The position numbers and the translations under genes are program-made. DNA of 51,095 bases from an uncultured Chitinophaga sp. (GTDB lineage: Bacteria; Bacteroidota; Bacteroidia; Flavobacteriales_D; Crocinitomicaceae): the NCBI GenBank assembly GCA_964532475.1, contig CAZHLZ010000001.1:14891-65985 (forward strand), read 5' to 3'. The notes under the pieces were generated by a model. It saw only the letters and a list, made by a program, of their open reading frames with translations. It had not been told where the DNA came from and did not search any database. Below are positions 22,587 to 46,311 of the stretch, in pieces. The number at the start of each line of letters is the position of its first letter. The first letter of the stretch is position 1.

Positions 22587-22910
22587 ATGATAACAGTAAC
22601 AGAAACAGCAAAAAAACAAGCAATTCGTTTGATGGAAGACGAAGGAAAAGCTGGATATTTTATACGAGTTGGAGTTGATGGTGGAGGTTGTTCAGGATTA
22701 ATGTACCAACTTACATTTGACAATGAGGAGAAAGAAGGAGACAAAGCTTTTGAGGATAACGGAATTAAAGTTGTCGTAGACAAAAAAAGTTTCTTGTACT
22801 TAATAGGTACAACTTTAGATTTTTCAGGAGGCTTAAATGGAAAAGGCTTTGTTTTTAATAATCCAAATGCAAATCGCACATGTGGGTGTGGGGAGAGCTT
22901 TTCATTATAA
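22587..22910 (+). CDS. sufA: Iron-sulfur cluster insertion protein (HesB/IscA/SufA family)
   Basis: C-terminal CGCGESF motif; 107 aa; first gene of the suf operon. Confidence 0.9.
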   Translation: MITVTETAKKQAIRLMEDEGKAGYFIRVGVDGGGCSGLMYQLTFDNEEKEGDKAFEDNGIKVVVDKKSFLYLIGTTLDFSGGLNGKGFVFNNPNANRTCGCGESFSL

Positions 22911-22975
22911 AATTGAAAATGTAGAATGAAAAATTGAAAATTATTTTACATTCTCAATTTTCAATTCTCAATTTA
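22911..22975. repeat. Heptad-phased palindromic array with no gene inside (sufA|sufB junction)
   Basis: AATTGAA AATGTAG AATGAAA AATTGAA AATTATT, then TTACATT CTCAATT TTCAATT CTCAATT, with strict 7-nt phasing. Confidence 0.8.
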
Positions 22976-22982
22976 AATAAAA

Positions 22983-24437
22983 ATGGCAAATTACACAGAA
23001 AACGAACTTGCAAAAGACTTAGAAAATCAAGAATATAAATTTGGTTTTGTAACGAATATTGATTCAGATCAAGCTCCAAAAGGTTTGAATGAGGACATTA
23101 TTCGATTTATTTCAGCAAAAAAAGAAGAACCACAGTGGATGTTGGATTTTCGTTTAAACGCTTTCAAAGTTTGGAAGGAAATGACTGAGCCTTCTTGGGC
23201 GCATGTGCATTACGAAAAACCAAATTTTCAGGATATTATTTATTATTCTGCACCTAAACAAACAAAAAAATACGAATCTTGGGACGATGTAGAGCCAGAA
23301 TTGAAAGAAACAATGAAAAAATTGGGAATTTCAATGGACGAGCAACAACGATTAACAGGAACTAATGTCGCTGTAGATTTTGTAATGGATTCTGTTTCAG
23401 TGGCAACTTCTTTCAAGGCTAAATTGGCAGAATTAGGTATTATTTTTTGTTCCTTTTCTGAAGCAGTTAAAGATCATCCTGAATTGGTCAAAAAATACAT
23501 GGGAACGGTTGTTCCTACAAGCGATAATTTCTACGCAGCATTAAATAGTGCAGTTTTTACAGATGGTTCTTTTTGTTATATTCCGAAAGGAGTGAAATGT
23601 CCAATGGAATTATCCACTTATTTCAGAATAAACGAAGGAGGAACTGGTCAATTTGAAAGAACCTTAGTTGTAGCTGATGCTGGAGCTTATGTTTCTTATT
23701 TAGAAGGTTGTACCGCACCACAACGTGATGAAAATCAGTTACACGCCGCAGTTGTAGAGCTAATTGCTTTGGATGATGCTGAAATTAAATATTCAACTGT
23801 ACAAAATTGGTATCCTGGAGATAAAGAAGGTAAAGGTGGAATTTTTAATTTCGTAACAAAAAGAGGATTGTGTGAGCGTAACGCAAAAATCTCATGGACC
23901 CAAGTAGAAACTGGTTCAGCAGTAACTTGGAAATATCCATCTTGTATTTTAAAAGGTGATAATTCTGTAGGTGAATTTTATTCTGTTGCTGTTACCAATA
24001 ACTACCAACAAGCGGATACAGGAACAAAAATGATTCACTTGGGTAAAAACACAAAAAGTACAATTATTTCAAAAGGTGTTTCAGCAGGAAAATCGAATAA
24101 TTCATACCGTGGTTTGGTTCAAATTCACAAAAATGCAGACAATGCGCGAAATTTTTCACAATGTGATTCTTTGTTAATGACAGACGAATGTGGAGCACAC
24201 ACTTTTCCCTACATTGAATGCAAAAATAGTTCAGCAAAAATCGAACACGAAGCAACAACTTCCAAAATCGGTGAAGATCAAATTTTTTATTGCAACCAAC
24301 GTGGAATCAGTACAGAAAAAGCAATTTCATTAATCGTAAACGGATATTGTAAAGAAGTATTGAATCAATTACCTATGGAGTTTGCTGTTGAAGCACAAAA
24401 ATTATTAGCCATCTCGTTAGAGGGAAGCGTCGGTTAA
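22983..24437 (+). CDS. sufB: Fe-S cluster assembly protein SufB
   Basis: Typical 484-aa SufB sequence in suf operon context. Confidence 0.95.
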
Positions 24438-24443
24438 AGCCCT

Positions 24444-24478
24444 AAATTACAAAATAGCAAATTACAGATTGCAGATTA
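24444..24478. repeat. Heptad word array upstream of four-helix-bundle gene 1
   Basis: AAATTAC AAAATAG CAAATTA CAGATTG CAGATTA. 24446-24470 matches 24855-24879 at 23 of 25 nt as a direct repeat. Confidence 0.8.
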
Positions 24479-24852
24479 TGGCAACAATTGAAAAATTTGA
24501 AGAATTAGAAGTTTGGAGAACAAGTATGGATTTATGTACTGAAATTTACAAATTGACTAATACTGAATTATTTTCTAAAGATTTTGGATTAAAAGACCAA
24601 ATTAGAAGATGTTCAGTTTCTGTTCCTTCAAATATTTCAGAAGGTTACGAAAGAGATGGAAAAAATCAATTTTTGTATTTTTTAGCGATTGCTAAAGGAT
24701 CTTGCGGAGAATTAAGAACACAATTACGAATTGCTTATAATTTGAATTACATAAGTAACGAGGAATATGAAATTTTGAATGAAAAATGTTTATCAACAAG
24801 TAAACAAATTAAAGGGTTTATTAAATATTTGAAGAGTTATAAAGGGAAATAA
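24478..24852 (+). CDS. Four-helix-bundle protein (23S rRNA intervening-sequence protein / Avd-like family)
   Basis: The pattern FEELEVW...A..L...IY.LT, SVPSNISEGY and GSCGELRTQL is characteristic of the TIGR02436/PF05635 family. The ATG at 24478 is preferred over the TTG at 24469. Confidence 0.8.
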   Translation: MATIEKFEELEVWRTSMDLCTEIYKLTNTELFSKDFGLKDQIRRCSVSVPSNISEGYERDGKNQFLYFLAIAKGSCGELRTQLRIAYNLNYISNEEYEILNEKCLSTSKQIKGFIKYLKSYKGK

Positions 24853-24918
24853 AGATTACAAATTAACAAATTACAGATTATCCTAATCTGACAATCTGCC
24901 AATTTGTAATCTGCAATT
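24853..24918. repeat. Heptad-phased hairpin downstream of four-helix-bundle gene 1
   Basis: AGATTAC AAATTAA CAAATTA CAGATTA, tcc, then TAATCTG ACAATCTG CCAATTTG TAATCTG. There are perfect 7-bp pairings at the inner and outer ends. Confidence 0.8.
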
Positions 24919-24927
24919 AAGAATAAT

Positions 24928-25686
24928 ATGTTAAAAATCACAAATTTACACGCCAATATCGATGGCAAAGAGATCTTAAAAGGTTTAAACCTTGAAGTAA
25001 AAGCAGGTGAAGTTCATGCAATCATGGGGCCAAACGGTGCAGGGAAAAGTACCTTGGCATCAGTTTTGGCTGGCCGCGAAGAATACGAAGTAACTGATGG
25101 TTCCGTTGATTTTGACGGAAAGGATTTGTTGGATTTAGCAACAGAAGATCGTGCAAGGGAAGGATTGTTTTTGGCATTCCAATATCCAGTTGAAATTCCA
25201 GGAGTTTCAAACGTAAATTTCTTGCGAACTGCAATTAACGAAATCAGAGAATATAAAGGTGAAGAAGGAATTTCTGCGAAAGATTTTATGACAATGGTCC
25301 GTGAAAAATCAAAAATAGTTGAGTTGGATGCTAAATTGGCATCACGTTCGGTGAATGAAGGTTTTTCAGGAGGTGAGAAAAAACGTAATGAAATTTTCCA
25401 AATGGCGATGTTGGATCCAAAATTGTCTATTTTAGATGAAACGGATTCTGGTTTGGATATTGACGCTTTACGTATCGTTGCAAACGGTGTAAATACGCTA
25501 AAATCAAAAGATAACGCAACAGTTGTGATTACGCACTACCAACGTTTGTTAGATTACATCGTTCCAGATTTTGTTCATGTTTTATATGACGGAAAAATTG
25601 TGAAAACTGGAGGAAAAGAGTTAGCTTTAGAATTGGAAGAAAAAGGCTACGATTGGATTAAAGAAGAATTGAAAATTGAGAATTAA
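24928..25686 (+). CDS. sufC: Fe-S cluster assembly ATPase SufC
   Basis: Walker A GPNGAGKST, ABC signature FSGGEKKR and Walker B ILDETDSGLD. Confidence 0.95.
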   Translation: MLKITNLHANIDGKEILKGLNLEVKAGEVHAIMGPNGAGKSTLASVLAGREEYEVTDGSVDFDGKDLLDLATEDRAREGLFLAFQYPVEIPGVSNVNFLRTAINEIREYKGEEGISAKDFMTMVREKSKIVELDAKLASRSVNEGFSGGEKKRNEIFQMAMLDPKLSILDETDSGLDIDALRIVANGVNTLKSKDNATVVITHYQRLLDYIVPDFVHVLYDGKIVKTGGKELALELEEKGYDWIKEELKIEN

Positions 25687-25751
25687 GAATTAAGAAGGTA
25701 GAATTGAATATGTAACATCAAATTTCATTTTCAATTCTTCACTCTGCATTC
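25666..25751. repeat. Heptad-phased palindromic array with no gene inside (sufC|sufD junction)
   Basis: GAATTGA AAATTGA GAATTAA GAATTAA GAAGGTA GAATTGA, a spacer, then TTCATTT TCAATTC TTCACTC TGCATTC. It overlaps the last 7 codons of sufC. Confidence 0.8.
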
Positions 25752-25766
25752 ACCATTATTACACAT

Positions 25767-27065
25767 ATGAACGAATTAATTTCAGAAAAATATACTATTC
25801 AAACAGAAATTTCAGCAAATTTTTTACTTCCTGAAAATCTGCGAGAAAAAGCAAATGAAATTCTTGAAACAACAGAGTTTCCAACAACAAGAACAGAGGC
25901 TTGGAAATATACACGAGTTGCGAAGATAAAAAACTCCGTTTTTAAGACATTAGACTTAAGACAGAAGACAAAAGACCTCGATATTTCCAACTTTTTGATT
26001 CCAAACTTAGAAGGTTCTGTGATGGTTTTTGTTAATGGAATTTACGCGAAAGAATTATCAAAAATTGAGGCAGAAAGTGGACTAGAACTAGTTTCATTGG
26101 CGGAAAATAATATTTTCGGAGAAGCTATTGGTCAACAAATCCCTCTAGAGAATGAAGTTTTCTCTGCAATTAATACCTATTATGCTCAAGATGGAGTGGG
26201 GATTCGAATTGCGAAAAAAACTGAATTAAAGCAAAGTATACAAGTGATTTTTATCAGTACTGGTGAAAATTCTTATTCAGGTGCAAGAAATGTCATTTCT
26301 TGTGAGGATTTTGCTTCGGCACACATTGTTTTAAATTATGTAACAGAAAACACTGGTACTTCGACTCCGCTCAGTGTCCAGCCAAATTTCACGAATTGTA
26401 TTACTGAAATTCATGTTGGAACGAATGCAAATTTATCAATTGATAAAATTCAACAAGAAGTCGATTCAAGTTTTAACATTACAAGTGAATTTGTAAATCA
26501 AGAAAAAGATTCAACTTTTACAATCAATACCATTACCTTAGACGGAGCCTTAGTTCGCAACAATTTAACGATTGCAGTAGATGGACAAAACTCAGAAACA
26601 AATCTTTCTGGTGCCTACATCTTAAAAGGAAAACAACACGTGGACAACCATACCGTTGTTGACCATAAAGTTGCTCATTGTCAGTCGAATGAATTGTACA
26701 AAGGTGTAATTGATGACCAAGCAACAGCTGTTTTCAACGGCAAAGTTTTTGTTAGAAAAGACGCACAAAAAATCAATGCTTTTCAATCAAACGGAAATGT
26801 ATTGTTAAGCGATAATGCAACGGTAAACTCTAAACCAGAATTGGAGATTTATGCAGACGATGTAAAATGTTCGCATGGTTCAACCACTGGACAACTGGAC
26901 GAAGAAGCAATTTTTTACCTTCGTGCTCGAGGAATTTCTGAAAAAGGTGCAAGAGCATTGATGGTTTCGGCTTTTATTGGAGATGTAATTGAAAAAATCG
27001 AAAACGAATCAGTTCAGGAATACGTTTACGGAAAGTTGGAAGAGAAATTTGGATGGGTGAAGTAG
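25767..27065 (+). CDS. sufD: Fe-S cluster assembly protein SufD
   Basis: 432 aa. The C-terminal region KPELEIYADDVKCSHGSTTGQLDEEAIFYLRARGI is typical of SufD. Confidence 0.9.
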   Translation: MNELISEKYTIQTEISANFLLPENLREKANEILETTEFPTTRTEAWKYTRVAKIKNSVFKTLDLRQKTKDLDISNFLIPNLEGSVMVFVNGIYAKELSKIEAESGLELVSLAENNIFGEAIGQQIPLENEVFSAINTYYAQDGVGIRIAKKTELKQSIQVIFISTGENSYSGARNVISCEDFASAHIVLNYVTENTGTSTPLSVQPNFTNCITEIHVGTNANLSIDKIQQEVDSSFNITSEFVNQEKDSTFTINTITLDGALVRNNLTIAVDGQNSETNLSGAYILKGKQHVDNHTVVDHKVAHCQSNELYKGVIDDQATAVFNGKVFVRKDAQKINAFQSNGNVLLSDNATVNSKPELEIYADDVKCSHGSTTGQLDEEAIFYLRARGISEKGARALMVSAFIGDVIEKIENESVQEYVYGKLEEKFGWVK

Positions 27066-35592: not shown

Positions 35593-38262
35593 TTAAAGAA
35601 TCACACTTCCCAACCAGCGTTCCATTTCTTCAAACGACTTTCCTTTTCGTTCAGCAATGGATTTCACTTGCTCGTTAGTGATTTTTCCTAATCCAAAATA
35701 CTTGGCTTGTGGATGCGCAAAATACCAACCTGAAACAGAGGCTGTTGGATACATCGCTAAACTTTCAGTTAAACTTACTCCGCTCAATTTCGTTGCATCT
35801 AAGATTTCAAATAAAGTTACTTTTTCGGTGTGGTCTGGACAAGCTGGATATCCTGGTGCAGGACGAATTCCACGGTATTTTTCTTTGATTAAATCGTCGT
35901 TTTGTAAGTTTTCGTCGCTCGCGTAGCCCCAATAATCTTTACGAACCAATTCGTGCAAATGTTCCGCAAAAGCTTCTGCCAAACGATCTCCAAGTGCTTT
36001 TAGCAAAATAGAAGAATAATCATCGTGGTCTTTTTCAAATTCAGCTACTTTTTCGTCTAAGCCAAGGCCCGTTGTGACAACAAAGGCACCCAAATAATCA
36101 GCAAAATTCGTTTCTTTAGGTGCAATAAAGTCTGCTAAGGCAATATTCGGAACTCCTTGCGCTTTTGTTGTTTGTTGACGTAAACTGTATTGAACAGCTT
36201 GTATTTTTGAACGCGAATCATCGGTATAAATTTCGATATCATCTCCAATCGCATTCGCTGGAAATAAACCAAATACAGCATTCGCTTGCAACCATTTTTC
36301 ACTGACAATTTTCTGCAACATTTCTTGTGCATCAGCAAAAAGTTTTGTTGCTTCCACTCCAACCACTTCGTCTTCTAAAATATTCGGATATTTTCCGTGC
36401 AGTTCCCACGTTTGGAAAAAAGGTGTCCAATCGATGTAAGGAACTAATTTATGTAAGGGATAAGCTTTCAATTCCTTAACGCCCAATTCTTTTGGTTTCG
36501 CAATATCTTCAGCCTTCCATTCAATTTGGAATTTATTTTTTTGTGCTTGTTCTAAAGAAAGTAAATTCTTTTCTGAACGGTGCTTTTCGTGGTGTTCGCG
36601 TAGTTTTTGATAATCTGCTTTTAGCTCATTGACAAAATCGTCTTTTTTGTGTCCCAATAAACTTTCCACAACTGTAACTGCTCGAGAAGCATCTAAGACG
36701 TGAACCGTTTGTCCTTTGGTGTAATTTTGTTCAATTTTTACGGCAGTATGAACTCGTGAAGTTGTCGCACCACCAATCATCAAAGGAATCGACAAGCCAG
36801 CACGTTCCATTTCTTTAGCAACATGCACCATTTCATCCAAAGAAGGAGTAATCAAACCACTTAATCCAATCACATCCACATTTTCTTTGATGGCAGTTTC
36901 GATGATTTTTTCCGTTGGAACCATCACACCAATATCGATCACTTCATAGTTATTACAGCCTAAAACAACACCCACAATATTTTTTCCAATGTCGTGAACG
37001 TCGCCTTTTACAGTTGCCATCAAGACTTTTCCTGCTGAGGAACTTTTTCCATTTTTTTCGGCCTCAATATAAGGAAGTAAAACGGCAACAGCTTTCTTCA
37101 TTACACGAGCAGATTTTACAACTTGTGGCAAGAACATTTTTCCGCTACCGAATAAATCTCCAACCACGTTCATTCCATCCATCAATGGACCTTCAATCAC
37201 TTCAATTGGTCGCGCATATAATTTTCTGCATTCTTCCGTGTCTTCGTCAATAAATTCAACGATTCCTTTTACCAAGGCATGTTTTAATCGTTCTTGCACA
37301 GAAACATTTCTCCACGATAAATCCACTTCTTTCTTAGTGGCATCGCCTTTCACTGTTTCCGCAAATTCTAATAATCTTTCAGTAGCGTCAGGTCTGCGAT
37401 TCAACATCACATCTTCCACATGTTCCAACAAATCTTTCGGGATATCGTCGTAAATCTCAATCATCGTTGGATTCACAATTCCCATGTCCATTCCTTCTTT
37501 GATTGCATGATACAAAAACACGGAATGCATGGCTTCACGCACTTTGTTATTTCCTCTAAATGAGAAAGAAACATTTGAAACACCACCACTTACATGCGCA
37601 CCTGGCAGATTTGTACGAATCCATTTTGTCGCTCTGAAAAAATCCAAGGCATTGTTATTGTGTTCGTCCATGCCCGTTGCCACAGGGAAAATATTTGGAT
37701 CGAAAATAATATCCTGAGCTGGGAAATTTACTTTATCTACCAAAACACGGTAAGAGCGTTCGCAAATTTCAATTCTTCGTTCATACGAATCCGCTTGACC
37801 TTGTTCATCAAAAGCCATCACAATTACTGCTGCACCGTAACGTTTGATTTTTTTGGCTTGAGCAATGAAGTTTTCTTCTCCTTCTTTCAAGGAAATTGAG
37901 TTTACAATACCTTTTCCTTGAATGCATTGCAAACCAGCTTCAATGATTTCCCATTTCGAACTGTCAATCATCACTGGAATACGCGAAATATCTGGTTCAG
38001 AAGCCATCAAATTCAAAAATTTAACCATCGCTTCTTTACCGTCAATCATTCCTTCATCCATATTCACATCGATGATTTGCGCACCACCTTCAACCTGCTC
38101 CAAGGCAACAGAAAGAGCATCTTCAAAGCGATTTTCTTGAATCATGCGCAAAAAAGCACGTGAGCCAGTTACGTTGGTGCGTTCACCTATGTTGATGAAA
38201 TTTGATTCTGGCGTTACAACCAATGGCTCAAGACCGGATAATTTTAATGGGGGTAAATTCAT
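35593..38262 (-). CDS. metH: Methionine synthase, pterin-binding + B12-binding + AdoMet-activation modules
   Basis: Begins at the LKLSGLEPL linker motif. [12 protein letters not shown] is the B12 DxHxxG motif. The 889 aa are collinear with E. coli MetH from about residue 345 to the end. Confidence 0.93.
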
Positions 38263-38271
38263 AATAATTTA

Positions 38272-38321
38272 GAATGAAGAATGTAGAATTGAGAATATTG
38301 TTCCGTATTCAATCCACATCC
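38272..38321. repeat. Heptad-phased array at the 3' flank of four-helix-bundle gene 2
   Basis: GAATGAA GAATGTA GAATTGA GAATATT followed by a degenerate inverted copy (ATTCAATCCACATCC). Confidence 0.8.
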
Positions 38322-38328
38322 TTAAAAT

Positions 38329-38688
38329 TTAGATTTTATTTGTTCTTTGTTTCGTTGTTAAAATACTACTGGAAAGCATTTTATGAATTTCATTTGACTT
38401 TGAATACAAATTGTCAAATTCATTTTTATTTAAATAATTAGAATCTAATAGTAATTCTAACCAATACTGAGATTCACCACATTCTTTTAAAGAAATCGAT
38501 AATTTGTGAATGAAATCAGCTGGACTTTGAGCATTATTTGCTTCACGAATGTTAGCTCCAACTGAAGTTGCTGATCTTACTAATTGTTTACTCAAAATGA
38601 ATTCTTTTTTTTCTATCAATTGTTTGTAGAGAGAAATGGAGTCAAGAGCAAATGAATAACTTTTCGTTTTTAAAAAATTTTCTTTCAT
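38329..38688 (-). CDS. Four-helix-bundle protein (23S rRNA intervening-sequence protein / Avd-like family)
   Basis: Family pattern: SYSFALDSISLYKQL, RSATSVGANIREA, FIHKLSISLKECGESQYWLELL. Confidence 0.8.
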   Translation of the reverse strand: MKENFLKTKSYSFALDSISLYKQLIEKKEFILSKQLVRSATSVGANIREANNAQSPADFIHKLSISLKECGESQYWLELLLDSNYLNKNEFDNLYSKSNEIHKMLSSSILTTKQRTNKI

Positions 38689-38725: not shown

Positions 38726-38767
38726 AATTCTCAATTCTCCACTTTTAATTCTACATTCTCTATTTTA
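38726..38767. repeat. Heptad-phased array at the 5' flank of four-helix-bundle gene 2
   Basis: AATTCTC AATTCTC CACTTTT AATTCTA CATTCTC TATTTTA. 38747-38759 is the perfect 13-nt reverse complement of 38278-38290. Confidence 0.85.
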
Positions 38768-39747
38768 CGAGGTTCATACTTTTTCGCCAAATCCGCTATC
38801 ACTTTGATATGTGCCGGAGTTGTTCCGCAACAGCCACCGATGATGTTTACAAGGTGCTCATCCAAAAAGGTTTTGATTTGTTCACCCATGAGTTCTGCAG
38901 TTTCATCGTATTGACCGAACTCGTTTGGTAAACCTGCGTTTGGATGTGCTGAAACGGCGAAGGGAGATTCTTTATCCAAAATCTGCAAATAAGGACGCAT
39001 CATGGAAGCTCCTAAGGCACAGTTTAGACCAATACTTAGCAATGGCATGTGAGAAACTGAAATCAAAAATGCTTCAGTTGTTTGTCCAGTCAAGGTTCTT
39101 CCAGATTGATCGGTAATAGTACCAGAAACCATAATTGGCAATTTCTTATTACGTTCTTCAAAAACCTCATCTATTGCAAACAAGGCAGCCTTTGCGTTTA
39201 AGGTATCAAAAACAGTTTCAACTAACAAAATATCAACTCCACCATCCATCAAGGCATTTACTTGTTGTTTGTAAGCAGTTACCAATTCTTGGAAGGTAAT
39301 CCCTCTAAATCCAGGATCATTTACATCTGGAGAAATGCTTGCAGTTCGGTTTGTTGGACCAATTGAACCGGCAACAAAACGCGGTTTATCAGGATTGAGC
39401 GCTGTGAATTCATCTGCAACTTTTTTGGCAATTTTTGCTGAATGAAAATTAATATCATACACTGCAAATTCTAGATCATAATCCGCTTGCGCGATGGTTG
39501 TTCCAGAAAAAGTATTTGTTTCAGCGATATCTGCACCTGCCTCAAAATATTGACGGTGAATATCTTCTATGATTTCAGGACGTGTCAAGGAAAGTAAATC
39601 GTTGTTTCCTTTTAAAGGCTTGTGGTGATTTTCAAACCAGCCTTTGCGAAAATCTTCTTCTTCGAGTTTATGACGTTGAATCATCGTACCCATTGCTCCG
39701 TCTAAAACAAGAATTCTTTTTTTTAGGATTTCTTCTATTTTGCTCAT
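38731..39747 (-). CDS. metH: Methionine synthase homocysteine-binding (S-methyltransferase) module as a separate ORF
   Basis: LDGAMGT and the GGCCGTTPAHI zinc-ligand motif. It ends at ..YEPRK (E. coli ..APRK linker) plus a 10-aa tail, IENVELKVEN, encoded by the repeat array. The ATG at 39747 is preferred. Confidence 0.9.
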   Translation of the reverse strand: MSKIEEILKKRILVLDGAMGTMIQRHKLEEEDFRKGWFENHHKPLKGNNDLLSLTRPEIIEDIHRQYFEAGADIAETNTFSGTTIAQADYDLEFAVYDINFHSAKIAKKVADEFTALNPDKPRFVAGSIGPTNRTASISPDVNDPGFRGITFQELVTAYKQQVNALMDGGVDILLVETVFDTLNAKAALFAIDEVFEERNKKLPIMVSGTITDQSGRTLTGQTTEAFLISVSHMPLLSIGLNCALGASMMRPYLQILDKESPFAVSAHPNAGLPNEFGQYDETAELMGEQIKTFLDEHLVNIIGGCCGTTPAHIKVIADLAKKYEPRKIENVELKVEN

Positions 39748-39801
39748 AATATCTAATTTATACTTTAAAACATACAAATTAAGAGGGTTGATGAACAAAC
39801 A

Positions 39802-44920: not shown

Positions 44921-44950
44921 TTTTACGTAATTTTACGTAATTTTACGCAA
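44921..44950. promoter_or_regulatory. Three tandem 10-bp units TTTTACGTAA (the third is TTTTACGCAA)
   Basis: Perfect 10-bp periodicity, with the palindrome TTACGTAA in each unit. Located 48-77 nt upstream of the ATG at 44873, just upstream of a TATTTTTG -7 box (44894-44901). Confidence 0.45.
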
Positions 44951-44972: not shown

Positions 44973-45998
44973 TTACCTCAATCCAAGCTGCTTGTATCTT
45001 TCTTCAATTAATTGTGAATACTTGATTTTAAAAGCATCACCAACGAAGCTTTTTTCAAGGACTTCCAACATTTCGGGCTTTGCATATTCAAACAATTCCA
45101 AAGTATTATCCAAGATTTTTTTATTCAAACCGCAAAGTTCGTAAGCAGCCAAAAAATCTGCGTATTTTAATTTCCGTTTCTTGGCATTCAAGGTCAAGGC
45201 TAATTCTTCCGTGTCTGCTTCGTTTACCAAGGCTGTAGGAACCAAATCATACGCTGGACTCAAGCTCATTCCCACCCCTTCTTTTTCCAAGAGGGAAAAG
45301 TTTTTTAGGTGCATGTCGCTGTTTCCCGTAAAGAAACTAAATAACACCAATTCGTAAAAATTGCTGACATCCAACAAGGGAGTCGCTGAATATTTCAGTA
45401 ATAATTTAGCAACTTGTTCGTGGCTACCTTTGTATTTATCTTCCGTCAAACGTTCACTCAATTGGCACATATCTTCCATGTGGAGCTTGCCTTTTCGCGT
45501 TCTATCGACACGTTTTGTGATGTAACACAAAGTTTCATCTTCCAAACGGATTAAACTATGCGGTACAGCTTGCAAGCCACAAGCAGCTGCCATGTGCATG
45601 GTAACGCTTTCTAGTTCTGGCAACTCTGGATAATATTCCGAAGGTGGTTTTAAGATGTAATCGCCATAAAGACCAACTATTGTTAGTTTTTTGGTAAGAT
45701 TTTTTTCTTCTTTTCGATATAAACTTAAGGAAACCTTTGCTTGAACACCTGTGACAGCCATTTGACTTTGGATAACTTGTGTAGCTAAGTCTTGTAAATT
45801 TTCTAGTTTGTAATTGAGTTGCGGAGTTTTGAGTTGTCCGTAAAACCGTTTGTTGCAAGCTTGATGTACTTCTGTATCTGCTTCGTGCAAAGGTTCATAA
45901 CAATGCAAGCAACGCTTTCCGAAAAAGGCAGTTGGCTCATTTACTTCGTACGTAAAATGTGCCTTTCTTGCTAAATATTTCTTTTTAAAATTTTTCAT
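44973..45998 (-). CDS. hipT: HipT-like Ser/Thr kinase toxin (HipA family lacking N-subdomain 1)
   Basis: HipT-type N-terminus CLHCYEPL...HQACNKRFYG, Gly-rich loop MAVTGVQAKVSL, catalytic GNSDMHLKNFS and PAYDLVP. The ATG at 45998 overlaps hipS by 14 nt. Confidence 0.8.
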   Translation of the reverse strand: MKNFKKKYLARKAHFTYEVNEPTAFFGKRCLHCYEPLHEADTEVHQACNKRFYGQLKTPQLNYKLENLQDLATQVIQSQMAVTGVQAKVSLSLYRKEEKNLTKKLTIVGLYGDYILKPPSEYYPELPELESVTMHMAAACGLQAVPHSLIRLEDETLCYITKRVDRTRKGKLHMEDMCQLSERLTEDKYKGSHEQVAKLLLKYSATPLLDVSNFYELVLFSFFTGNSDMHLKNFSLLEKEGVGMSLSPAYDLVPTALVNEADTEELALTLNAKKRKLKYADFLAAYELCGLNKKILDNTLELFEYAKPEMLEVLEKSFVGDAFKIKYSQLIEERYKQLGLR

Positions 45999-46311
45999 TG
46001 TTTTGTACACTTACTGCTCCAATGCAATCTTTACAACAGCTTAAAAGTAAGCCCATTCTGTCTCTGTAATTTATTTTCCAATTTCGTTCTGCAATGTCCA
46101 ATAGCCAACCTTCAGGAATTAGACCATCGAAAAACGAAAACAAGGTGTTGCTGTGAAACACTTCTTTTCGCAAGGGGAACGTTAAACTTATTGCACGTGC
46201 ATCCTTGTCGTTCAAGTAAAACTCATCGTATTGAAAAAAGTATCCTTGTTCATTTTCAGAAATGATGCCACAAAATTTCTCCTTGAAAAGCACTTTTCCG
46301 CTTCTTTCCAT
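45985..46311 (-). CDS. hipS: HipS-like protein (stand-alone HipA N-terminal subdomain)
   Basis: 108 aa. GYFFQYDEFY, FFDGLIPEGW and CCKDCIGAVSV match the HipA N-terminal/couple_hipA region. Confidence 0.8.
   Translation of the reverse strand: MERSGKVLFKEKFCGIISENEQGYFFQYDEFYLNDKDARAISLTFPLRKEVFHSNTLFSFFDGLIPEGWLLDIAERNWKINYRDRMGLLLSCCKDCIGAVSVQNNEKF

Follow-up and report, generated by a model that had tools for sequence, protein, structure and literature searches.

Why does a small gene stand between sufB and sufC, bordered on both sides by tandem seven-nucleotide words that could pair with each other across it? The question is raised by a 51,095-nucleotide (nt) stretch of DNA from an uncultured bacterium recorded as Chitinophaga sp. 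(contig CAZHLZ010000001.1, positions 14,891 to 65,985), here called the window and numbered from its own first letter. The base composition of the window is 33.5% GC, and its closest relatives are metagenome-assembled genomes (MAGs) of Crocinitomicaceae and Flavobacteriales, with SufB identities of 86–91%. The gene encodes a four-helix-bundle (4HB) protein of the family found in the intervening sequences (IVSs) of 23S rRNA. The elements of the locus are as follows:

22983–24437, plus strand: sufB, the upstream host gene (NF008773 SufB, E 3e-271)
24444–24478, plus strand: 5′ arm, L, made of the five 7-nt words AAATTAC AAAATAG CAAATTA CAGATTG CAGATTA
24478–24852, plus strand: 4HB gene (S23p/IVS-protein, Avd-like), 124 aa (PF05635, TIGR02436, AlphaFold2 (AF2) model)
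24853–24882, plus strand: L′, a direct copy of arm L, directly after the stop codon; left arm of a local hairpin
24884–24921, plus strand: 3′ arm, R, made of reverse-complement words; its partner is L′ (local hairpin) or L (long-range stem)
24928–25686, plus strand: sufC, the downstream host gene (TIGR01978, E 2e-111), starting 6 nt beyond the end of arm R

The answer that we favour on balance is that the gene and its word arrays belong together as a cassette with no promoter of its own, which lies co-directionally in the suf operon and is built like the 23S IVSs that carry an open reading frame (ORF). In this layout, a 5′ array of tandem 7–8-nt words is followed by a short spacer (with a ribosome-binding site in phyla that use Shine-Dalgarno sequences), the 4HB ORF and a 3′ reverse-complement array whose beginning is at or close to the stop codon. 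What is new, and supported, is an IVS-like layout of cargo plus stem inside an mRNA that generalises across a family of more than 30,000 clusters.

The ORF at 24478–24852 is a PF05635/TIGR02436 four-helix-bundle protein. The first-pass annotation, made from the letters of the window, had assigned an IVS-protein/Avd-like 4HB gene to the space between sufB and sufC, and both profiles match well above their cut-offs (PF05635, E 4.2e-37, 127 bits against a cut-off of 33.8; TIGR02436, E 5e-38, 129.7 bits against 24). The start is taken as the ATG at 24478; a TTG at 24469 lies upstream in the program-made ORF list, but the relatives begin with MATI. The AF2 model has four long helices and a predicted local distance difference test (pLDDT) score of 93. 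Its best Foldseek match is 2gsc (XCC0516; template modelling (TM) scores 0.85/0.92, root-mean-square deviation 1.4), and it also matches 2rld (BT_0352; TM 0.77/0.88) and Avd of the Bordetella phage diversity-generating retroelement (DGR; 4dwl, TM 0.74/0.84). With phmmer, XCC0516 is matched at E 2e-18 and BT_0352 is also matched. The solved structures 2gsc and 2rld each contain five chains, i.e., they are pentamers. Of the RxxxSxxxNxxE motif reported for the 4HB family (PMC3936711), the protein has R44, S48, N52 and E55, the last three invariant in the family alignment. Its match to the bAvd Pfam profile is weak (E 5e-5, 24.2 bits against a cut-off of 40), and its exact sequence gave no record in the look-up.

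The repeats around the gene were found as described in the first-pass annotation, i.e., heptad words upstream, a direct copy of them downstream (24446–24470 against 24855–24879, 23/25 identical, with such matches in 0/100 shuffles) and an inverted copy abutting the latter. The last word of arm L shares the A of the 4HB start codon. The local hairpin at 24853–24912 has a folding free energy (ΔG) of −17.8 and a z-score of −4.3 to −5.2, equalled in 0/200 shuffles. The long-range pairing between L and R comprises 24468–24478 with 24907–24917 (11/11) and 24442–24471 with 24892–24921 (70%), and is present in the minimum free energy fold of the whole unit. The duplex energies are −23.1 kcal/mol for L:R and −19.1 kcal/mol for L′:R, compared with a mean of −8.1 for shuffled L, and it is thus correct that both direct copies are able to pair with the inverted arm. 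The L:R stem would loop out the ORF, whereas L′:R forms a local hairpin downstream of it. Duplex-folding energy was dropped as a statistic for flank pairing; large interior loops gave shuffles of −14 to −20 kcal/mol. The 12–13-nt flanking words AGATTACAAATT and CAGATTACAAATT are, within the window, confined to the suf 4HB locus, and period-7 arrays were located by TRF at 22909, 22950, 24855, 25664 and 38266.

The three-arm layout is real and is kept in relatives. Four loci (L168–L171) with proteins 98–86% identical to the suf 4HB protein preserve the order L, ORF, L′ and R with altered sequences, and their L:R and L′:R duplex energies remain comparable. At least one change in these arms is compensatory, an A:U to U:A replacement in which CAGATTaCAAATT/AATTTGtAATCTG becomes CAGATTtCAAATT/AATTTGaAATCTG.

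The same layout extends to the family at large. The sample comprised 99 family ORFs from the window, SufB loci, three viral contigs and 80 metagenome loci, with a GC content of 28–64%; both flanks were available for 89 of them. The 120 nt upstream of each gene were aligned locally to the reverse complement of the 120 nt downstream, and 380 genes of the same loci served as controls. Complementary flanks (z > 3) were found for 63 of the 89 4HB genes (71%) and for 11 of the 380 controls (2.9%), and an alignment score of at least 30 was reached by 50/89 and 0/380, respectively (Fisher p 3e-45). The inverted-arm layout is the rule for the 4HB family and is rare in control genes, and the notion of a cargo-plus-stem unit, put forward for the suf locus alone, generalises accordingly. 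These numbers also settle whether the repeats could be chance low-complexity sequence in an AT-rich spacer, unlinked to the gene. The GC content of the window and its AT-rich words would suit such an origin, but the observed matches were reached in 0/100 to 0/500 shuffles, no control scored 30 or more, and the pattern persists at 63% GC, where (AGTTCCAG)×4 stands opposite (CTGGAACT)×4. The control comparisons already refute this explanation, and we give it practically no credence.

The arms are also regular in position. The 3′ arm mostly begins at the stop codon or overlaps it, and in high-GC loci a 30–60-nt spacer with a GGAGG box follows the 5′ arm. Of the neighbouring genes no more than 400 nt away, about 90% point the same way as the 4HB gene; the median gaps are 76 and 62 nt, and the 4HB cassettes thus sit inside operons. 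The identity between two proteins is correlated with the word content of their arms (Mantel p about 0.001), an association found mainly between close relatives.

If gene and arms are one cassette, transcription of the host operon would read through it. The arms would pair as an RNA duplex of 20–40 bp, the ORF would be looped out of the suf transcript with its start codon buried, and RNase III would cut the duplex as it does in rRNA IVSs. In the window lineage L′ would compete with L for R, and the RNA may alternate between two forms, one in which the L′:R hairpin leaves the ORF start free and one in which L:R pairing loops the ORF out. The harmless seat of an inserted gene between tightly coupled cistrons may reflect such looping out of the transcript.

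The closest parallel is provided by the ORF-bearing 23S IVSs of Coxiella burnetii and Leptospira, in which a protein of the same family is encoded in the loop of an inverted-repeat stem. The comparison rests on the published description of the Coxiella IVS. This IVS has a 28-bp terminal stem and, ahead of the ORF, three copies of GACAGAT, the first of which is where RNase III cuts; the number of heptamers varies between strains (PMC4990558). The parallel drawn in the first-pass annotation is borne out by these features. In both systems tandem heptamers stand right before the ORF (TACAGAT/TGCAGAT in the window), terminal inverted repeats enclose the element, here via L:R pairing, and the ORF, sense to the host transcript, has no apparent promoter of its own (PMC4990558 for the IVS ORFs). 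A sigma-70 promoter scan found no more sites than chance, with a consensus that is ill-suited to Bacteroidota promoters. The two systems differ in their hosts: the 23S IVSs lie inside helix 9, 25 or 45, whereas the site here is sufB–sufC, and the hosts of the 4HB cassettes are mRNAs (suf, metH, cas and nrd operons), with no rRNA context at 20 other 4HB carrier loci. Unlike the 23S IVSs, the window lineage has a third arm and an alternative hairpin, and unlike the decaying Coxiella protein, the 4HB protein is under purifying selection (dN/dS 0.08–0.22 for 4HB genes, 0.04–0.05 for SufB and the N-fragment of MetH). Excision by RNase III, with no religation, belongs to the 23S IVSs; for the suf cassette we infer, by analogy, that the arms pair in vivo and that RNase III processes them.

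Avd offers a second parallel, related to the protein itself. It is the closest homologue that has been characterised and has the same four-helix-bundle fold (PDB codes 4DWL and 8UB7); all five protomers of its pentamer take hold of an 11-bp RNA stem-loop (bioRxiv 10.1101/2023.10.23.563531). By analogy, the pentameric 4HB protein probably binds an RNA stem-loop, plausibly that of its own arms, and binding of the protein to its own repeat stem thereby becomes a concrete hypothesis for its role. The RNA of DGRs likewise pairs segments upstream and downstream of its core. Unlike Avd, the two 4HB genes of the window have no adjoining reverse transcriptase, template or variable repeat, their flanks being sufB and sufC or the metH halves, and sequence identity to Avd is about 10%. 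Taken together, the build of the Coxiella IVS, the orientation along the host gene, the lack of a detected promoter and the grip of Avd on an RNA stem-loop speak for a role at the RNA level.

A second cassette is present in the window, on the minus strand:

38726–38760, minus strand: 5′ arm of the metH cassette, GAGAATG TAGAATT ... GAGAATT GAGAATT (score 37, 0/500 shuffles)
38329–38688, minus strand: second 4HB gene, coding for 119 aa, flanked by the two parts of a split metH (TIGR02436, E 8e-33, 112.9 bits)
38271–38296, minus strand: 3′ arm of the metH cassette, ATTCTCAATTCTACATTCTTCATTCT

Its words (GAGAATG/TAGAATT) are unlike those of suf, and it has complementary arms of its own. The proposal that each insertion carries or created its own repeats holds insofar as the words differ and each copy has its own arms; the words are not free, however, and follow a common consensus and orientation, as described below. 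The enzyme itself is encoded by two genes here (35593–38262 and 38731–39798), one for the homocysteine-binding part and one for the rest of the enzyme. We considered the cassette as the cause of this split and rejected it: the 120 closest homologues of the N-fragment (120/120) are already separate genes, and the split therefore predates the cassette. The 5′ arm overlaps the last codons of the MetH N-fragment, and an array in the sufC–sufD junction (25663–25690) begins inside the last sufC codons. Because the arrays run into the upstream 3′ ends, the repeats encode the tails of MetH-N (...ENVELKVEN and stop) and SufC (...EELKIEN and stop).

The arm words are subject to rules of their own. Their period is 7 in 39 of the 63 copies with complementary flanks, 8 in 17 and 9 in 5, and further examples are (GTCCAAA)n, (GTTTCAA)n, (AGATTTAA)×6 and (ACGTTCA)×5. 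After rotation the words fit G-T-T-[T/C]-[C/A]-A-A (GTTYMAA), or GATTRCA as in the window. They are oriented inward from each end with a preference of 26:1; in the 5′ arms, GTT occurs 184 times against 44 for AAC, and AAG 161 times against 25 for CTT. With its complement in the 3′ arms, this 5′ consensus may be akin to the ends of many CRISPR repeats (GTTTCAAT...ATTGAAAC).

Several of the observations weigh against a cassette acting through an RNA stem. The words differ by locus yet share consensus and orientation, which argues for sequence recognition beyond pairing alone. Mismatches in the arms comprise 113 G:U and 101 A:C, i.e., there is no G:U excess in a test that is weakened by the ambiguous register of tandem words; complementarity could therefore be maintained in the DNA itself or because the arrays evolve in concert, and an RNA-level function of the arms is for the same reason not demonstrated. 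The stems of the window are AU-rich and modest (−18 to −23 kcal/mol), and in an Rfam scan of the suf locus no family covered the hairpins and no rRNA was matched. Moreover, 26 of the 89 copies have no inverted arms, and 12 of these (13% of the 89) have related direct arrays on both flanks, where an enclosing stem is consequently not possible. Outside this set of 12, the Pseudanabaena plasmid NZ_CP112875.1 (L175, 1380–2000) has (CTAAAAG)×14, a 4HB gene and (CCAAAAG)×9 between cas6 and cas4. Several of the 12 have three arms, two of which form a local hairpin to one side of the ORF while the third stands on the opposite side. In such three-arm layouts the hairpin lies downstream in L139 and L155, as in the window lineage, and upstream in L003, L146, L120 and L152.

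These points bear on an alternative in which the unit is a DNA-level element, either foldback-like, resembling MITEs (miniature transposable elements with inverted repeats), or targeted to hairpin loops, its arms being binding sites for a recombinase or for the 4HB protein and their complementarity a by-product of inverted binding sites. The word consensus with its fixed inward orientation, the lack of G:U bias and the existence of direct-orientation arrays would all be accommodated, as would a patchy presence among close relatives and the fact that 23S IVSs replace hairpin tips. Foldback transposons and MITEs also have inverted ends composed of short tandem sub-repeats, a small or absent coding core and ORF-less versions. 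They are, however, recognised by near-identical copies, common terminal repeats and target-site duplications; none of these was seen here, and a known transposase is lacking too. The suf and metH copies of the window are only 26% identical and have different words. No transposase or integrase was found near them in the ORF lists. An integron gene cassette would have an attC site downstream of the ORF and an integrase with attI nearby; no integrase-like ORF was noticed in the ORF lists, and the arms stand on both sides of the ORF instead of behind it. Only three relatives were found on viral contigs, phage records gave no match, and the plasmid matches are ordinary operon contexts. The co-orientation of about 90% with the neighbours fits dependence on host transcription. 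Altogether, we regard a DNA-level element as improbable.

The grouping of the copies points in the same direction. The sufB–sufC copies of Crocinitomicaceae, a Chitinophaga MAG and an unclassified Bacteroidetes MAG share 52–82% identity with each other, and only 33–45% with the copies at sufC–sufD or sufA–sufB; copies at one junction across Bacteroidota classes are thus more alike than copies in one genome. Judging by this clustering by junction and by the purifying selection noted above, the cassettes appear to have resided at their junctions for a long time, with frequent loss, and do not look like recent insertions. The mobility that the first-pass annotation had implied is not supported, given the low identity of the two window copies, the clustering and the absence of a target-site duplication or clean footprint. 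A nucleotide-level comparison with "empty sites" was dropped, as the arrays change more quickly than the genes beside them.

A SufB scan with one genome per species yielded 80 loci, and sufC was located in 75. The gap between sufB and sufC is at most 67 nt in 27 of the 75 relatives and 92–195 nt in eight, and in 40 it is at least 400 nt and holds a gene. The premise that sufB and sufC are normally adjacent is hence right for the first group but not for the 40 relatives with a gene-holding gap, in which the commonest occupant is a gene for a lipoprotein of about 135 aa; adjacency is thus not general in this phylum. This conserved gene, present in the gap of most Flavobacteriaceae (e.g., L010, 4499–4909; L009–L046 and others), has no NCBIfam match and no flanking repeats. 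Other genes in the gap are flavodoxin-like, GNAT, DUF and GxxExxY genes. 4HB genes are located at sufB–sufC in L001, L003, L049 (Chitinophaga) and L071, at sufC–sufD in six Flavobacteriaceae (L014, L022, L024–L027), and at sufA–sufB in L013, L017 and L026, as well as in Riemerella anatipestifer (L174). The 80 SufB loci contain 13 copies in total, each of them on the sufB strand and in one of these suf intercistronic junctions. Every copy at sufB–sufC has period-7 words upstream and their reverse complement downstream, with words that vary by lineage, e.g., CAGATTG/CAAATTG and AGTTTAA.

Genes of other families in the same gap serve as a control for position. Fourteen lipoprotein genes and four others are without arms, save for one borderline match of 15 nt (z 3.3). 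Both GxxExxY genes (TIGR04256, PD-(D/E)XK-like) in the sufB–sufC gap of Weeksellaceae, in contrast, have arms that are not heptad-built: an enclosing inverted repeat of about 100 nt with z 28 in L042 (4602–4982), and one with z 4 in L051 (2058–2462). Because they are enclosed by stems, the GxxExxY genes form a second small-ORF family with the same habit. GxxExxY proteins may have a link to rRNA IVSs as well, for which the papers searched gave no confirmation.

Hairpins that enclose nothing are the other occupants of these junctions, and in the window they accompany the remaining suf genes:

22587–22910, plus strand: sufA
22911–22974, plus strand: ORF-less hairpin in the sufA–sufB junction, AAAATTG ×4.9 / ATTCTCA ×3.4 (ΔG −16, z −4.2)
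25663–25751, plus strand: weaker ORF-less inverted array in the sufC–sufD junction, AAGAATT ×4.7; the fold is not significant alone (z −0.5)
25767–27065, plus strand: sufD

These two ORF-less junctions are the ones that carry 4HB genes in other genomes. At sufB–sufC, ORF-less hairpins or arm pairs were found in L002, L024, L057, L058 and L063. The metH junction is similarly variable: it is occupied by a 4HB gene in L164 and L165 (MetH-N 97% identical), by an ORF-less hairpin with different words (GTTATGA) in L166 (92%) and by a direct-only array in L167 (88%).

Such solo hairpins suggest an alternative in which the heptamer hairpins belong to the operon as native elements between its cistrons, of the type known as short tandemly repeated repetitive (STRR) or heptamer simple sequence repeat (SSR) arrays, with roles in mRNA processing, stability or translation control. 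The hairpin would come first and the ORF would be optional; 4HB genes would lodge secondarily in harmless loops, or would encode a domesticated RNA-binding protein that acts on the arrays. This would explain the solo hairpins at all three suf junctions of the window and at the sufB–sufC and metH junctions of ORF-less relatives, and it fits words that turn over fast while the hairpin persists, a protein that is under purifying selection and old at its junction, and heptamer arrays upstream of start codons that were published with no 4HB link (PMC4679880), others being known from Xanthomonas and Nostoc (PMC4692102). On the other hand, a scan of 686 kb from 85 sources turned up inverted word arrays around 4HB genes or around nothing, never around a non-4HB ORF; other genes in the same gap lack arms; and the same build occurs in 23S rRNA, where operon control is not at stake. 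In addition, part of the 4HB profile, its C-terminal end, is matched by 25 residues encoded in an ORF-less sufB–sufC gap of 149 nt (L078, 4434–4584; independent E-value 0.004), which would point to loss of the ORF and not to its gain. The match is weak evidence that this gap may be the remnant of a deleted cassette, with ORF loss in place, and it was the only remnant, a weak match, in the ORF-less junctions searched. Native hairpins are an explanation that we take seriously and yet consider unlikely.

The arrays in question have a literature of their own. Intergenic tandem 7-nt words have been described with their function unexplained (PMC4679880, PMC4692102): arrays such as TAACTGA upstream of start codons in Beggiatoaceae, Cyanobacteria and Bacteroidetes, with no tie to 4HB genes (PMC4679880), and GGGAATC/GGGGAYT arrays in Xanthomonas and Nostoc (PMC4692102). 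The arms studied here are likewise tandem 7-nt intergenic units, often just upstream of start codons. The STRR and heptamer SSR descriptions differ in that they concern direct repeats, with neither a 4HB gene nor an inverted partner array. The two literatures are joined by Nostoc, in which 4HB genes bear STRR-like heptamers as arms: on the Nostoc edaphicum plasmid NZ_CP054697.1 (L173, 1400–1960), nrdB and nrdA are separated by a 4HB gene in antisense orientation, whose arms, (TAGGGAG)n and (CTCCCTA)n, look like classic cyanobacterial STRR heptamers. Our literature search found no prior link between 4HB genes outside rRNA and flanking inverted arrays of tandem words; the presence of 23S_rRNA_IVP genes inside cas loci has been noted (PMC3936711, PMC10910872).

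The shared architecture bears on the origin of bacterial heptamer arrays. We tentatively propose, while thinking it less probable than the cassette itself, that 4HB cassettes and ORF-less hairpins of 7–8-nt words are one IVS-type class that resides in loops of abundant, indispensable transcripts, that the pentamer recognises its own arm words, one per protomer, and that the class is a major source of heptamer arrays. It would be hosted by rRNA and by essential operons, among them suf, metH, nrd and cas, and its arrays would typically contain 4–6 words. If this is true, the excess of heptamer arrays (STRR and similar), unexplained since their first description, would be given a source.

The layout also calls for caution against guilt-by-association annotation of 4HB genes. 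Members of PF05635, a family to which 32,197 clusters at 50% identity are matched at E ≤ 1e-3, have so far been read as rRNA curiosities or as functional partners of their host operon, as for those in cas loci, and we know of no function for the family outside DGRs.

Elsewhere in the window, at 44921–44947, a perfect palindromic tandem array (TTTTACGTAA)×2.7 is located about 25 nt from one end of a minus-strand ORF (44973–46010).

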